Assembly (NCBI GenBank): GCA_028712375.1
Contig: JAQTQG010000002.1
Coordinates: forward strand, 8,032 to 72,031
DNA length: 64,000 nucleotides
Source of the DNA: Candidatus Omnitrophota bacterium
Lineage (GTDB): Bacteria; Omnitrophota; Gorgyraeia; Gygaellales; Profunditerraquicolaceae
Reading direction: 5' to 3'
The notes beneath the pieces were generated by a model. That model was given only the letters and a program-made list of their open reading frames with translations. It did not search any database and had not been told where the DNA came from. Shown here piece after piece: positions 10,888-49,238 of this stretch. Position 1 is the stretch's first letter. Each line of letters begins with the position of its first letter. The position numbers and the translations under genes are program-made.

Positions 10888-11555
10888 TTTAACCCCATTG
10901 TTTTATGGATCTGGGGGATAACACAAGTGGTAACCCCCTCCTGGCTGGCAATTTCTTTAAAGTTCTTCATTTTTTCAAGTAAAACCGCTTGATTCTCGTA
11001 ACTATTCGGCTGTAAAACTAAAACACTGGAAGGGCTTATTTCTTTAATGATTGCCAAAGCCTCCTTCAAATCCTCTTCATAGGTCGCCTGACAGATAATT
11101 GCTTTAAGAAACACTTCTTTTTTAGAAGCAACTTTTAAAAATTTCCGGTGTAATTGCCAAAGATTACCCATTCCGGAAGAACTGGGAAATTTCAGATCCA
11201 TAGCGATAATATCAATATGATCAATTAATTTCTCCAGCTCAAAAAACAGGGTTCCGTTTGTTTCCAGGTAGTGCCGGTGGCCGTGGCCGCTGGTAAGCGC
11301 AATAATCTTCTTCAGAAAATCCGCATAAAGAAGCGGCTCACCTCCGGTAAAAGAAATAGAATGATATTTGTCACGGTAAAGGCAGATCTCTTCAAAAAGT
11401 TCATCCGGATCATATTCTGTGAACCGGTCCAGCTTAGTATCACAATAAATACAGCTGAGGTTGCAATCAAAAAAACGCACAAAAATCTGCTTCTCCCCTA
11501 AATACAGGCCTTCACCCTGCACGCTATCGAATACCTCGGAAATCCTGGCTTTCAC
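10884..11555 (-). CDS. queE: 7-carboxy-7-deazaguanine synthase QueE (radical SAM)
   Basis: CNLSCIYCDTK radical-SAM-like cluster motif. ~220 aa, inside the que operon. Confidence 0.85.
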   Translation of the reverse strand: MKARISEVFDSVQGEGLYLGEKQIFVRFFDCNLSCIYCDTKLDRFTEYDPDELFEEICLYRDKYHSISFTGGEPLLYADFLKKIIALTSGHGHRHYLETNGTLFFELEKLIDHIDIIAMDLKFPSSSGMGNLWQLHRKFLKVASKKEVFLKAIICQATYEEDLKEALAIIKEISPSSVLVLQPNSYENQAVLLEKMKNFKEIASQEGVTTCVIPQIHKTMGLK

Positions 11556-11631
11556 CCCGCCCCTTCTTTCTTATTTAGTTTATTTAACCGGACAGCTTTA
11601 GAAATCAAACATTTAGCAGGAACAGGGTTCA

Positions 11632-12291
11632 TCAATTAATTAACGGATCCGTCAAACCCGCCTCCTCAAAACCTTTAGCCCGGTAATAACAACTATCGCA
11701 TTCCTGACACGGTTTTACGCTTGCCCGATAGCATGACCGGGTAAGGTTAAATGGCACGCCAAGCTTATTACCCAAACGAATAATCTGCGATTTATTTTTA
11801 TTTAACAGGGGAGCCACTATCTTAATTTTATTTTTAGTAGCCAGCCCGACTTTAGCCATTTTCCTGAAAGCTTCAAAAAACTCCTCGCGGCAATCCGGAT
11901 ACCCGGAATAATCCTGCGCGTGCGCACCGATAAAAATCGCCTGCGCTTTAATCACTTCTGCCAATGATAAAGCAAAACTTAAAAATATAATATTGCGCGC
12001 CGGCACATAAGTAGCCGGAACTCCTGGGGTAATTTTCTTGGGAACCTTCATCTTTTCATCCAGCAGCGCAGACCCTTTCCAAGGAAATGCTATCTTTAAA
12101 ATTCTATATACGCAATTGCTGGCCCGGGCAATTTTTACTGCACAAGCTACCTCCTGCTTATGCCTTTGCCCATAGTCGAAAATTAAAACCTGGCATTTAT
12201 ACCCTTTGGCTTTGGCTAAGTACAAAACCGTAGCTGAATCCAGCCCGCCGGACAAAAGCACTACCGCAGTCTTTAAAATTTTATTCTTCAC
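11632..12291 (-). CDS. queC: 7-cyano-7-deazaguanine synthase QueC
   Basis: PP-loop VVLLSGGLDS and a C-terminal Cys cluster (CQECDSC). Confidence 0.9.
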   Translation of the reverse strand: MKNKILKTAVVLLSGGLDSATVLYLAKAKGYKCQVLIFDYGQRHKQEVACAVKIARASNCVYRILKIAFPWKGSALLDEKMKVPKKITPGVPATYVPARNIIFLSFALSLAEVIKAQAIFIGAHAQDYSGYPDCREEFFEAFRKMAKVGLATKNKIKIVAPLLNKNKSQIIRLGNKLGVPFNLTRSCYRASVKPCQECDSCYYRAKGFEEAGLTDPLIN

Positions 12292-12347
12292 CTTGCACCT
12301 TATTTTATATTTAGTCCATTAACCCGATAACCTTAATAATCGAATAA

Positions 12348-12764
12348 TTAGAAGGTGCCGGGTTCATAGGTAGCGCTGCTTGTACTATTCTCCCAGACCG
12401 TTACACAACTTAATAGTGGTATAACGGGCTTGAGCTGATCATAGATATATTTAGCAATATTTTCAGAGGTCGGATTTATTTTTTTACCGCCGGATACGGA
12501 TCCCCGCCTGACCGGCGGGCAGGCGCCTTTAACGGAAAAATATGGGATATGGTTAAGATATTTATGGTCCATCTTTTCCAAACAAGCATTTAATTTTTTC
12601 TTCAGGAATTTGAAATCCAAAACCATTCCAATTTTATCTAATTCACCAGACCTGGCCATTATTTCCACCACCCAATTATGGCCATGCAAATCTTCGCATT
12701 TGCCTTTGTAACCCCTTAAATTATGCGCGGAGCTAAACGTCCCCTGCACTTTTAAACTATACAT
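12348..12764 (-). CDS. queD: 6-carboxy-5,6,7,8-tetrahydropterin synthase QueD
   Basis: PTPS family: CEDLHGHNW ... a second His motif. Confidence 0.85.
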   Translation of the reverse strand: MYSLKVQGTFSSAHNLRGYKGKCEDLHGHNWVVEIMARSGELDKIGMVLDFKFLKKKLNACLEKMDHKYLNHIPYFSVKGACPPVRRGSVSGGKKINPTSENIAKYIYDQLKPVIPLLSCVTVWENSTSSATYEPGTF

Positions 12765-13548: not shown

Positions 13549-13615
13549 TAAACACCTTCTTTCTTATTCTTGGCTAAACTTTATATTTTAAAAACTTAGC
13601 TACACAAAGGACAGG

Positions 13616-14753: not shown

Positions 14754-14805
14754 CCAAAATTGAAAATTTTGGCGAGGTCTCACCATTTTTGCAAAGCAAA
14801 AATGG
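14754..14805 (-). terminator. Tandem hairpins immediately 3' of tmRNA (possible terminator/processing structures)
   Basis: CCATTTTTGC-aaa-GCAAAAATGG overlaps the tmRNA CCA end. GCCAAAATT-gaa-AATTTTGGC follows. No clean U-tract. Confidence 0.3.
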
Positions 14806-15209
14806 TGGAGGTGCGGGGAATCGGACCCCGGTCCTTAAGTAATCGCATAAAAGCCGCTACATGCTTAGCCTGATATTTTAATTCTTAACCTTGTAACTCC
14901 TACCCGGCAGGATTTACAAAGCGCAGCCTTTTCGATTTCGCCCCGGTTTGGAAGGCTAACCGCCGGAACTATCCTACTTGAGCCCTAATCTATCCCGTAG
15001 GCAGGACAGTCAGGGGCTTCGGGCTTAATTAAGTCCGAAGGCTGGTACGAACATCGGTTTAGCCGCAAAAGACGGCTGAACAAATGTTCCTAAACGTGAC
15101 ACTTGCGTGTTTGCGTTTGTATTGTGCAAGGATTGTTAACGCGGCTAACCGTGCGTCCGCGGCATGCTGCTCTTATCCGACATATCTTAAGTCGAACCCT
15201 TTCACCCCC
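14803..15209 (-). ncRNA. ssrA: tmRNA (ssrA)
   Basis: Minus-strand 5' end is GGGGGTGAAAGGGTTCGAC. The 3' end is tRNA-like, GGACCGGGGTCCGATTCCCCGCACCTCCACCA, with an encoded CCA. The acceptor pairs GGGGGTG/CACCTCC. It lies directly upstream of smpB. I could not assign the tag-peptide reading frame. Confidence 0.8.
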
Positions 15210-17005: not shown

Positions 17006-17086
17006 GCGGGAGTGGCGGAATGGCATACGCGCACGTCTCAGAAGCGTGTGGGGCAACCCTTGAGGGTTCAACTCCCTCCTCCCGCA
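17006..17086 (+). tRNA. tRNA-Leu (anticodon CAG), long variable arm
   Basis: GCGGGAGTGGCGGAATGGCATACGCGCACGTCTCAGAAGCGTGTGGGGCAACCCTTGAGGGTTCAACTCCCTCCTCCCGCA. Acceptor GCGGGAG/CTCCCGC, T-arm GAGGGTTCAACTCCCTC. Confidence 0.85.
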
Positions 17087-30755: not shown

Positions 30756-30762
30756 CTATGAA

Positions 30763-30837
30763 CCCCGCACCTTCCATATATCCAACTATTAAAACCGTGC
30801 GGGATAACAAATTAAATGAGAAAGAAGGTGCGGGGTG
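30763..30837 (+). promoter_or_regulatory. Inverted-repeat hairpin sequestering the lptF Shine-Dalgarno and GTG start (CCCCGCACCTTC...GAAGGTGCGGGG-TG)
   Basis: 12-bp arms separated by ~49 nt. The 3' arm contains the SD GAAGGTG and ends in the GTG start codon. An identical module sits upstream of radA at 49076-49147. Confidence 0.6.
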
Positions 30838-31938
30838 AAGATCCTGCGTAATTACATTTTAAGGGAATTCCTCGGTCCGCTGCTTCTGGTTTTGGGAGTG
30901 TTGACCTTTGTTATGGTGCTTATCGGCAATTTAAAACGCATCGCGGATCTAGTGATTAATAAAGGAGTGGATATCTTTAGTGTCATCCAGATTTTCATCT
31001 ACCTTACTCCTTATATTGTTACTTATACCTTGCCCATATCAATACTAGTGGCAGTATTACTGGCTTTAGGCAGATTAAGCGGAGACAATGAAGTAATCGC
31101 AATCCGCGCCAGCGGCATCAACTTATTTAAATTAATACTGCCCTTACTAACCATCGGATTAGCCTTGAGTTTAGCCCTGGCAGTTTTTAACGACCAGGCA
31201 GCATCCTATTCCCATTTTGCTTACCGCAAAACCTTGCAGGAAATGGGGATTAAAAATCCTACTGCCGCCTTTGAAGAAGGAGTATTTATTGATTCCTTCA
31301 AAAAATACATTCTTTTTATCTACAATGTTGACCAGAAAAAAAACCGGCTCAATAACATCCGCATCTATGAACCACAGGGCGAAGACCGGCCCACTCGCAC
31401 GATTGTGGCGAAAGCCGGAGAATTTATTACTGTGCCCGGTAAAAACACCGTAAAATTGAAGCTTATCGATGGAACCAGTGATGAGCCGGATCCGGAGAAC
31501 CCGACTAATTTTTATAAACTAAATTTCCGTACCTACTTCATGAACCTGGATATGGCACAAATGCAGGATAAGGTTGTAGAAAAGAAATATAAAGAAATGA
31601 CAATCCGCGAACTCAAAAAAGAAGCGGCTAAGCTTAAATCCGAAGGCATCAGCCCGGCGCCCCTAATCACCAAAATACATGAAAAACTAGCTTTGGCATT
31701 CTCCTGCTTTGTTTTCATGCTTCTGGGATCCTCATTGGGAATTATTACGCGCAGGCGCGAAAAATCCATTAACATCGGAATTGCCGTACTGATCATTGTC
31801 TGCTACTATCCTTTATATATCGGCTTAACCGCGCTGGCTATGGAAGGAGCTTTACCGGCAGCACTTGCCATCTGGTTGCCGAATATTATCTTTGCCGGTG
31901 TAGGCAGCTATTTAACTTATAAACTATGCGCATCTTAG
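30835..31938 (+). CDS. lptF: LPS export ABC transporter permease LptF (YjgP/YjgQ family)
   Basis: 6-TM YjgP/YjgQ architecture with a periplasmic beta-jellyroll insert. GTG start. Paired with lptG. Confidence 0.8.
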   Translation: MKILRNYILREFLGPLLLVLGVLTFVMVLIGNLKRIADLVINKGVDIFSVIQIFIYLTPYIVTYTLPISILVAVLLALGRLSGDNEVIAIRASGINLFKLILPLLTIGLALSLALAVFNDQAASYSHFAYRKTLQEMGIKNPTAAFEEGVFIDSFKKYILFIYNVDQKKNRLNNIRIYEPQGEDRPTRTIVAKAGEFITVPGKNTVKLKLIDGTSDEPDPENPTNFYKLNFRTYFMNLDMAQMQDKVVEKKYKEMTIRELKKEAAKLKSEGISPAPLITKIHEKLALAFSCFVFMLLGSSLGIITRRREKSINIGIAVLIIVCYYPLYIGLTALAMEGALPAALAIWLPNIIFAGVGSYLTYKLCAS

Positions 31939-47692: not shown

Positions 47693-49078
47693 TTAAACCT
47701 GTTGTTTCTGGCTGCAAAGTATAATATCTAGCGCCTCCTTTAAAGTTGAGACGGCAATAATTTCCATATCTGATTTTTTAAATTTAAGATTCTTAATGCT
47801 GTTCTTAGGTAAAATGCAGTGTTTAAACCCTAATTTCTCTGCCTCATTAATCCGCGTAAGCACCTGTGAAATACTTCTAATTTCGCCGCTCAAACCTACC
47901 TCTCCCAAAACTATAGATTTGGGCAATACTTCCTGATCACGAAAACTGGAAGCAATCACCGCGCACACCGCTAAATCCGCTGCCGGGTCTTCGATTTTAA
48001 TCCCCCCGGTAACATTAATAAATATATCTTCAGCTTCCAACGCCAACCCCATGCGTTTCTCTAAAACCGCAACTAATAAAGACAAGCGGTTAAAATCAAA
48101 ACCTTGCGCGCGCCGGCGGGCATAGCCAAAGCTGCTCCGGGAGACTAAAGACTGAATCTCCACTAAAAGCGGGCGGGTCCCTTCCAAGATCGAAGTAACA
48201 ATCGTGCCGGAAACACTGTTTGGCCGTTCTGATAAAAAGATTTCAGAAGGATTCTTTACTTCAGCTAATCCCGCAGATAGCATTTCAAACACTCCGATTT
48301 CATTAGTTGATCCAAACCTGTTTTTCACTGCCCTTAATATTCTGTAAATCGCGAAACGGTCTCCTTCGAAATACAGCACGGTATCTACGATGTGCTCTAA
48401 AACACGCGGCCCGGCTAAAGCACCTTCTTTAGTAACATGCCCGATAATAAAAATTGAGGTTTCCGTAGTTTTGGCTAATTGCGTAAGCACCCCGGCACAT
48501 TCCCTGACCTGGCTGACGCTCCCGGGGGAAGAACTGATCCCGGGGTCAAAGATGACCTGAATAGAATCAATTACTACCACCTGCGGCTTTAATTTTCTTA
48601 TATATTCAACGATTAAAGATAAATCTGTCTGATTAACAATATATAAATTATCGCTTCCTGACTCACCTAAACGCTTTGCGCGCAATTTAGTTTGAGCCAC
48701 GGATTCTTCACCGCTGACATAAAGCACACTGATTCCCTGCTTCGTTAAATGATTAGAAACCTGCAGAGAAATTGTAGATTTACCTACACCGGGATCGCCG
48801 CCGATCAACACCACAGACCCCTTAACAATCCCTCCGCCTAAAACCCGGTCCAGTTCAACAATATTGGTTTTTAACCTGTCCTCATCTTTGGCAACTACAT
48901 CTTTTAAAAGAACCGGCCCGTCTTTATACAGGCTGACCCTTTCTTTAGCACCGGGAGCAACCGGAGTATAATTTTCCTCGGCAAAAGAATTCCAGCTGTT
49001 ACAATCCGGGCAGCGGCCTAACCACTTAGGCGATTGGTAACCGCAAGCCGAACAACTAAAAACTGTTTTGGTCTTCAC
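47693..49078 (-). CDS. radA: DNA repair protein RadA (Sms)
   Basis: N-terminal zinc finger (CSACGYQSPKWLGRCPDCNSWNSF), a RecA-like Walker A (GGDPGVGKST) and a C-terminal Lon-like domain. GTG start. Confidence 0.92.
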   Translation of the reverse strand: MKTKTVFSCSACGYQSPKWLGRCPDCNSWNSFAEENYTPVAPGAKERVSLYKDGPVLLKDVVAKDEDRLKTNIVELDRVLGGGIVKGSVVLIGGDPGVGKSTISLQVSNHLTKQGISVLYVSGEESVAQTKLRAKRLGESGSDNLYIVNQTDLSLIVEYIRKLKPQVVVIDSIQVIFDPGISSSPGSVSQVRECAGVLTQLAKTTETSIFIIGHVTKEGALAGPRVLEHIVDTVLYFEGDRFAIYRILRAVKNRFGSTNEIGVFEMLSAGLAEVKNPSEIFLSERPNSVSGTIVTSILEGTRPLLVEIQSLVSRSSFGYARRRAQGFDFNRLSLLVAVLEKRMGLALEAEDIFINVTGGIKIEDPAADLAVCAVIASSFRDQEVLPKSIVLGEVGLSGEIRSISQVLTRINEAEKLGFKHCILPKNSIKNLKFKKSDMEIIAVSTLKEALDIILCSQKQQV

Positions 49079-49147
49079 CCCGCACCTTCTTGTTATTAAT
49101 TCATTAAACCATCAGCTTTAGTACTTGAACAATAAGAAGGTGCGGGG
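49076..49147 (-). promoter_or_regulatory. Inverted-repeat hairpin sequestering the radA Shine-Dalgarno and GTG start (second copy of the 30763 module)
   Basis: mRNA sense reads AAACCCCGCACCTTCTT-(44 nt)-AAGAAGGTGCGGG-GTG-AAG. The 18-nt agaaggtgcggggtgaag is identical to the lptF copy. Confidence 0.6.
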
Positions 49148-49238
49148 TTTGCCCCTTTTGCACCTTCTCCCTATTCATTAACTCTAAACCAAACCCTGCG
49201 CCTTCTAATATTTAAACAAAAGAAAACACAGGGGTTCA

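Follow-up and report, generated by a model that had tools for sequence, protein, structure and literature searches.

Why should lptF and radA, two unrelated genes, be preceded by the same hairpin? A preliminary description of the window, by which we mean the whole 64,000-nucleotide stretch of Candidatus Omnitrophota DNA considered here, had noted that both genes open within an identical 18-mer, that a matching arm lies 45-50 nt upstream and that the two arms could pair so as to occlude the SD and the start codon. From the combination of conserved arms and unrelated loops it argued for selection on the structure, and it offered as explanations a thermometer-like or protein/sRNA-gated switch or, alternatively, a small mobile 'start cassette'. 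As set out below, sequence comparisons lead us to the last of these: the hairpins are very probably copies of a MITE that inserts into start codons. Probably, too, this MITE is non-autonomous, restricted to the Omnitrophota in the collections searched, and rebuilds the start codon of its target, the downstream gene then being expressed via translational coupling.

Hairpins in front of lptF and radA

The 18-mer AGAAGGTGCGGGGTGAAG occurs exactly at 30823-30840 on the forward strand and at 49073-49090 on the reverse strand, against 0.00 matches in shuffled sequence. The 5' arm CCCCGCACCTTC is found, again exactly, at 30763-30774 (+) and 49136-49147 (-), its distance to the 3' arm being 49 nt in the lptF copy and 46 nt in the radA copy. 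The loops of the two copies do indeed differ. Both ORFs open at a GTG within the 18-mer, one encoding a 367-residue protein of the LptF/LptG family (PF03739, E 1e-85) and the other a RadA-like protein of 461 residues. These GTG codons appear to be the true starts: the LptF and RadA N-termini, MKILRNYILREF and MKTKTVFSCSACG, resemble full-length starts and alignments with orthologues begin at residue 1. When folded with their flanks both leaders are predicted to pair the arms, with an MFE of -30.7 kcal/mol (z -3.75) for lptF and -37.0 kcal/mol (z -6.5) for radA, and in neither case was any of 200 shuffles as stable. In both leaders the paired stem covers the SD-like GAAGGTG and the GTG, in agreement with the occlusion first proposed. 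An intrinsic terminator or attenuator in the radA leader was also considered and dropped, its stems having no T-run and the extra hairpin there being a decayed older copy of the element (see below). The features of the two copies are as follows.

30759..30762, + strand: 5' TGAA copy of the target-site duplication at lptF, forming with A30758 the retained original lptF ATG
30763..30835, + strand: lptF copy from inverted repeat to inverted repeat, 73 nt, with the 5' arm CCCCGCACCTTC at 30763-30774 (nhmmer E 3e-17)
30824-30835, + strand: 3' arm GAAGGTGCGGGG of the lptF copy, which holds the SD GAAGGTG
30835-30837, + strand: present GTG start of lptF
30836..30839, + strand: 3' TGAA copy of the duplication at lptF; G30835, the last base of the element, and the TG of this TGAA make up the GTG start
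30758..30838, + strand: relay mini-ORF of the lptF copy, MNPAPSIYPTIKTVRDNKLNEKEGAG and stop, which begins at the old ATG and whose terminal TGA shares bases with the new GTG (GTGA); 26 codons, intact
49078..49147, - strand: radA copy E2, with the 5' arm at 49147-49136 and the 3' arm at 49089-49078 (HMM E 1.7e-14)
49078-49076, - strand: GTG start of radA supplied by E2, with the 3' TGAA at 49077-49074

The element family and its distribution

Species-representative genomes were scanned for both exact arms lying 30-60 nt apart. This retrieved 121 exact-arm copies at 113 loci in 34 assemblies, all of them Candidatus Omnitrophota MAGs, with habitats that include lakes, groundwater, deep mines, peat and the Black Sea. 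A single MAG, JAKLQX01, contains up to about 20 exact-arm loci, while a hairpin scan of viral contigs gave 0 matches. Since the sample was chosen for perfect arms, its arm conservation arises partly by construction, the structural figures given below describe intact copies, and selection on the hairpin therefore cannot be demonstrated from these data. The pattern of constant arms and unlike loops, from which such selection had been deduced, is also what would be expected of the terminal inverted repeats of a MITE.

The element measures around 73-86 nt between its inverted repeats, its longest internal ORF has about 28 codons and it contains no transposase gene. The terminal inverted repeats are CCCCGCACCTTC(T) and (A)GAAGGTGCGGGG, with an imperfect extension to TATTCA/TGAATA, and the consensus reads (A)TGAA-CCCCGCACCTTC-TAAATATTCA...variable...TGAATAAGAAA-GAAGGTGCGGGG-TGAA. 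In 113 of 123 copies an ORF of 60 codons or more begins at the GTG formed from GGGG+TG; the corresponding counts for the other two frames are 0 and 5. More than 100 unrelated genes lie downstream, among them radA, lptF, rpmJ-like, tsaB and murI. Despite the symmetry of the arms, 110 of the 123 copies have the same internal orientation with respect to the gene, which counts against the MITE reading in so far as a symmetric cut-and-paste model does not predict it. Small size, terminal inverted repeats, a target-site duplication with empty sites (see below) and many dispersed copies are together the marks of a MITE. Our search for published descriptions of Omnitrophota repeats or MITEs, or of the literal arm sequences, found none that was relevant, and the family appears to be undescribed so far.

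The element is also seen in uncultured MAGs titled Planctomycetia or Planctomycetales (L009, L019, L022, L026, L032, L042, L073, L074 and L107). The label is probably a placeholder, L073 and L107 being syntenic with the Omnitrophota window.

Several peculiarities are confined to the loops. Many hold a second copy of the 3' arm followed by TGAA-like sequence, exact at a few loci and degenerate at most (examples are L001:2624-2695, L033, L069 and L096); in L001, L069 and L080 the MFE structure pairs the 5' arm with this inner copy, leaving the outer SD and GTG free. Another perfect palindromic repeat, TGTAGACCTACGCGGTCTACA, is nested in copies of the element in the MAG JAPLLY01 (L013:1103-1146 and L091:2323-2341); neither the window nor the other 191 loci contain it. 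Finally, the orthologous radA copies L050:7184-7256 and L081:2660-2734 have flanks that are 99% and 95% identical, identical arms and the same unusual 5' flank ATTAA, with loops of only about 63% identity. The loop would therefore seem to have been replaced, by re-insertion or by exchange between copies, rather than to have diverged through point mutation.

Evidence for insertion into start codons

The 4-mers flanking the inverted repeats are identical on both sides in 99 of the 123 copies. Fifteen copies have a 3' flank other than TGAA and nine of them carry the matching variant on the 5' side (TGAG six times, TGGA twice and TGAT once). Since variant flanks match on both sides, TGAA is not part of the element but represents a 4-bp target-site duplication.

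Comparison of orthologous loci tells the same story. There are 35 orthologue groups that hold both filled and empty sites and, across all 35, the empty sites read ATGAA, ATGAG or ATGGA, that is, the start codon and the next two bases. Filled sites read, at the same point, ATGAN-[element]-(G)TGAN, with the tetranucleotide on both sides; examples are provided by L075 when compared with L024 and L010, by L037 with L045 and by L091 with L044. The lptF site is filled in the window, in L096 and in L049, where the copy has decayed, and is empty in L028 and L107, which read ATGAGAATA and ATGAAAATT, respectively, at the point of the 5' TGAA. At the tsaE-tsaB junction it is the window that is empty (...ATGAGAATACTG), as is L073 (...TTTATGAAAATATTAGGC), while L028 is filled, reading ...TTTATGAA, then the element, CCCCGCACC...GGTGCGGGG, and then TGAAGATATTAGCC. 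The tsaB start is filled in L028, L033 and L049, and the last of these is the closest relative of the window at this locus, a pattern that points to repeated independent insertion.

A check independent of the arms is provided by RadA orthologues that were retrieved from metagenomes by protein similarity. In L115 and L123, whose RadA proteins share 90% amino acid identity with that of the window and which keep mlaD upstream, the mlaD-radA junction lacks the element (TAATGAAAAC; aaagaaaTAATGAAAAC). The junction is also empty in relatives whose RadA is 77-81% identical.

It is these target-site duplications and filled and empty sites that support the mobile cassette among the explanations first offered. 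In around 0.96 Mb of fetched flanking loci we found no ORF bounded by arms separated by 0.13-4 kb, the arrangement expected of an autonomous IS or transposase gene with these ends; no transposase having been found in the fetched flanks, transposition is deduced from its footprints only.

Further copies and relics in the window

The lptF and radA hairpins are not the only copies in the window, just as they are not the only ones in the phylum. Relaxed searches and an HMM built from the family located additional copies at queC and queE, and alignment revealed two relics, at radA and murI; the 64 kb thus hold four HMM-detectable copies and two relics, involving 6 of about 62 genes.

49152..49238, - strand: radA-E1, an older decayed copy including its 5' TGAA (49238-49235), right after the mlaD stop (TAATGAA)
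12287..12367, - strand: degenerate copy at the queD-queC junction (HMM E 7e-10)
12367-12363, - strand: old ATGAA of the queC copy, with the 5' arm CCCGGCACCTTC at 12362-12351 and the 3' arm TAAGGTGCAAGG at 12302-12291
12291, - strand: GTG start of queC, with the 3' TGAA at 12290-12287
11551..11632, - strand: degenerate copy at the queC-queE junction (HMM E 6e-9)
11632-11628, - strand: old ATGAA of the queE copy, with the 3' arm GAAGGGGCGGGG at 11566-11555 and the queE GTG start at 11555
13549..13615, - strand: murI relic, occupying the intergenic region 5' of murI

The arms of radA-E1 read CCCCTGTGTTTTC (5') and GAAGGTGC-AAAA-GGGG (3'). This copy is orthologous to the sole copy of L076 and L014, and E2 has inserted at its 3' end. 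At the queD-queC junction, queD runs into the arm of the element (..YEPGTF) and ends at the element's TAA at 12350-12348 (-); the mini-ORF of this copy is interrupted. In the queE copy the A of the old ATGAA is shared with the queC stop TGA (TGATGAA) and the 5' arm, CCCTGTTCCTGC, has decayed, while the mini-ORF, MNPVPAKCLISKAVRLNKLNKKEGAG and stop, is intact at 26 codons. The murI relic keeps AATAAGAAAGAAGGTG, the remaining arm and GTG having been replaced by TTTAATG; the orthologous site of L015 bears an intact copy. Pairing has been lost without compensation in the decayed copies at queE, murI and radA-E1 and at the lptF site of L049. The two perfect copies in the window, lptF and radA E2, would be either young or maintained, and those at queC, queE, murI and radA-E1 would be decaying.

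Some further properties of the window may be recorded here. Twenty of the 62 predicted genes start with ATGAA, ATGAG or ATGGA and are potential targets that are still empty. GTGAA starts are found in five genes, four of them preceded by the element. Ordinary genes of the window have GGAGG-type SDs. The tmRNA gene at 14803-15209 (-), matched by Rfam at 152 bits, has a 3' end, ...GATTCCCCGCACCTCCACCA, that matches the arm CCCCGCACCTTC at 11 of 12 bases; with 0.29 one-mismatch matches expected per window, this may be chance or may hint at the origin of the arm. None of the four tRNA genes, at 5918-5991, 7409-7482, 7611-7685 (-) and 17006-17086 (+), is associated with a copy of the element.

Consequences of insertion for the gene

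The element enters (A/G)TGAA start codons at the TGAA, and these four base pairs are duplicated. The old ATG is kept 5' of the element: position -5 is A in 76% of copies and G in 14%, and the 5' flank reads (A/G)TGAA in 90%. The new start, GTG-AAN, is composed of the terminal G of the element and the duplicated TGAA, and, since it is rebuilt from the duplication, the N-terminus of the protein (M-K/N/R...) is preserved. The 3' inverted repeat, furthermore, places the SD GAAGGTG (AGGTG) 4 nt before the new GTG, where it should be readable by ribosomes that use the GGAGG-type SDs of the window genes.

The upstream gene is often affected too. Among the 106 copies with a co-directional upstream gene, the upstream stop is the TGA of ATGAA or lies 1 nt away in 49 and is a TAA just within the element arm in four; in most others it lies no more than 8 nt upstream. 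Where the element supplies the end, as in queD (..YEPGTF and stop, window 12348-12389 (-)) and in tsaE of L028 (..YEPRTF and stop, about 7061-7130), the last five codons and the stop come from the element. The notion that the TGA of ATGAA serves as a second in-frame stop for the upstream gene was rejected: all three window cases are in frame, but the larger set is distributed 19/19/15 across the three frames.

As the ends of the element are inverted repeats, a stem in which the SD and GTG are buried is predicted to form in the mRNA. The MFE structure pairs both arms in 119 of 123 copies of the perfect-arm sample, the terminal stem being a perfect G+C-rich helix of 13-14 bp, and freeing the SD and GTG (by forbidding their pairing) costs a median of about 16 kcal/mol. 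From what is known of RBS structure and translational coupling (PMC12548453), a stem this strong would block free 30S binding. The downstream gene would still be expressed since translating ribosomes would open the stem, and this could happen in two ways. By the first route, ribosomes that finish translating the upstream gene at the border of the 5' arm would melt most of this arm. By the second, a ribosome starting at the retained ATG would read the mini-ORF through the element, stop at the TGA of GTGA and re-initiate. On either route the element would be no regulator of lptF or radA, but a parasite of translation start sites that largely neutralises its own effect.

A possible relay through the mini-ORF

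The mini-ORF typically has around 20-28 codons and extends from the retained ATG to a TGA overlapping the new GTG. The length of the element is divisible by three in 82 of 123 copies (binomial p 6e-14), and the mini-ORF is open in 47 of 67 eligible copies, compared with 11.3 +/- 3.0 after shuffling of the loops. Stops in the central loop of those copies whose length is a multiple of three number 28 in frame against 61 and 99 in the other frames, a depletion confined to this class, the remaining copies having no such bias. Open relay ORFs are also about three times as frequent at tight operon junctions (40 of 86) as elsewhere (5 of 33). In addition, each of the three frames meets a stop shortly before the start, owing to TGAATAAG, which is conserved ahead of the 3' arm, and to the terminal TGA. 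On these sequence statistics, we consider the chances that the element acts as a translational-coupling relay through its mini-ORF to be evenly balanced.

It is possible, though we regard it as the less probable reading, that the same MITE works with no relay at all. The mini-ORF would then be an accident of the founder sequence, and initiation would be driven by the SD, either before the hairpin closes cotranscriptionally or after a ribosome terminating upstream has melted the 5' arm. An open relay ORF is, after all, present in just some 40% of all copies, and neither radA copy (E2 or E1, whose sequences were read by eye) has one; radA E2 and the queC copy nevertheless precede intact genes. 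Nor does the length periodicity disappear where the ORF is closed and upstream genes are not close: among copies without a near upstream gene, length is divisible by three in 13 of 17 and the ORF is open in three of 17. This periodicity may be due in part to founder subfamilies of 72, 75 and 78 nt. In most copies, moreover, the upstream stop is within or adjoins the 5' arm, which fits the RNA-unfolding model of coupling (PMC12548453). Against this reading stand the excess of open ORFs over loop shuffles (47 of 67 versus about 11), the in-frame depletion of stops solely in multiple-of-3 copies, and the enrichment of open ORFs at tight operon junctions.

Other explanations of the family

A bolder interpretation, to which we attach a rather low probability, would make the element a start-codon-homing transposon with oriented recognition of initiation sites. 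It is prompted by the 90% of flanks that read (A/G)TGAA, by the fact that the same start codons have been hit in separate lineages and by the fixed orientation of 110 of 123 copies. The invariant arms would now constitute a phylum-wide module rendering about one gene in ten strictly dependent on upstream translation, possibly with a common trans-acting factor and with exchange of loops as in L050 and L081.

The switch favoured at the outset, a dedicated cis-regulatory RNA (a thermometer or a protein/sRNA-gated, SD-sequestering device) for lptF, radA and other genes, now looks most improbable. The hairpin is certainly predicted to be stable and to occlude the SD and start codon, and an arm sequence identical across species could in principle be the site of a trans-acting factor. 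However, presence and absence of the element at the same junction among close relatives, the target-site duplications, the functional diversity of over 100 downstream genes and the decay without compensation at queE, murI and radA-E1 all speak against such a role. The shared structure is equally unhelpful to it. RNAalifold analysis of 32 copies of the 75-nt class yields a common structure consisting of the 14-bp terminal stem only, with a covariation term of 0.02, and Rfam searches of the window at the gathering threshold and of the lptF leader at E<=1 gave no matches other than the tmRNA and tRNAs. With only a terminal stem in common, that low covariation and unrelated genes downstream, membership of a riboswitch or structured-leader class was rejected. 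In a small set of variant copies, changed arm pairs divide into 10 compensated, 10 one-sided and 10 broken, and the compensated changes could equally reflect subfamilies of inverted repeats. ROSE and FourU thermometers have short, mismatched stems. The present stem is a perfect, G+C-rich helix of 13-14 bp at about -30 kcal/mol, unlikely to melt at physiological temperature; a place among those thermometers was discarded given this stem, the MFE of -31 to -37 kcal/mol and the lack of an Rfam match.

We hold out equally little hope for a REP-like or IS200/IS605-derived palindrome, moved as single-stranded DNA by a RAYT or TnpA(Y1) and placed 3' of TGAA without duplication. The single hairpin, variable loop and numerous oriented copies would suit such a palindrome, orientation bias being typical of single-strand transposition, but the 3' 4-mer changes along with the target (TGAG/TGAG, TGGA/TGGA, TGAT/TGAT), as can be explained only by a true duplication, and the element, twice as large as a REP, lacks a GTAG or CGTC head.

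That a translational-coupling module evolved in the host and spread between junctions by gene conversion or recombination, rather than by transposition, is likewise hardly credible: its orientation relative to the gene is fixed and the L050/L081 pair, with nearly identical flanks, resembles loop replacement between fixed arms, but clean 4-bp duplications of a variable target are footprints of transposition, empty and filled sites differ by exactly the element plus 4 bp, and arms of 12-14 bp are short for homologous recombination.

Implications

The Omnitrophota are an uncultured phylum of ultra-small, probably host-dependent bacteria. If the reading as a start-rebuilding MITE is right, a mobile element persists in these very compact genomes by rebuilding the start codon, the SD and the coupling, an independent parallel to the MIRUs discussed below. 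There are practical consequences for gene callers, which would meet GTG starts behind a decoy ATG and upstream genes lengthened by five element codons (..EPGTF and stop), and each genome may hold dozens of mini-ORFs of the MNPAPS...EGAG type. Insertion polymorphism among close relatives could provide strain markers, as in MIRU-VNTR typing. Should the relay be real, the family would comprise over 100 naturally varying devices for termination and reinitiation across a strong hairpin, on which the unfolding and scanning models of coupling might be compared.

Comparison with known systems

REP and BIME sequences, which are mobilised by RAYT, are described in PMC3733652 as palindromes of 20-40 nt with a GTAG or CGTC head and no target duplication. 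The present element has 73-86 nt and CCCC ends and generates a 4-bp duplication, and was therefore not assigned to them. More is shared with the Correia/NEMIS, ERIC and RUP MITEs, which are non-autonomous, have inverted repeats and target duplication, are transcribed in operons as long stem-loops and in some cases contain ORFs; they differ in their length of 100-170 bp, in mostly duplicating TA and in neither targeting start codons nor supplying an SD and start (PMC2229807).

The repeats called REP2 in Neisseria and IR in Borrelia also bring an RBS and start codon, but they are without terminal inverted repeats and carry a promoter, and duplicating insertion into start codons is not reported for them in PMC3184786. 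The Omnitrophota copies, by contrast, sit inside operons and nothing indicates a promoter role. As regards mechanism, the hairpins of rpmI-rplT, the MS2 coat-lysis junction and f1 VII-IX resemble the present one in that a downstream SD and start are paired with upstream sequence and opened by upstream translation (PMC12548453). Those hairpins, however, are unique and locus-specific, having evolved in place rather than being copies of a mobile repeat.

The preliminary description knew of no element of this form, but a described analogue does exist in the MIRU repeats (Supply et al. 1997, Mol Microbiol 26:991, as summarised in PMC3184786 and PMC12548453). MIRUs are small (40-100 bp) intergenic repeats of polycistronic operons, with filled and empty sites, tetranucleotide direct repeats and internal ORFs that overlap their neighbours (PMC3184786). 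They insert at start codons, the internal ORF being coupled to the gene at -4 nt and the impact on expression minimised (PMC12548453). Like them, the Omnitrophota element inserts at start codons within operons, with direct repeats of 4 nt and with filled and empty sites, and the stop of its internal ORF overlaps the downstream start (in 47 of 67 eligible copies, including lptF and queE), although this ORF is absent from many copies. Unlike MIRUs, it has perfect, G+C-rich inverted repeats of 13-14 bp that bury the RBS, it brings its own SD and rebuilds an ATG start as GTG from its last base and the duplication, and it occurs mostly as a single copy per site, with no tandem arrays of the VNTR type. 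It also belongs to another phylum, so that kinship in sequence is not to be expected, and the likeness is one of described features. MIRUs are the closest described system, but as every exact-arm copy comes from the Omnitrophota the element is best regarded as an analogue of MIRUs and not a member.
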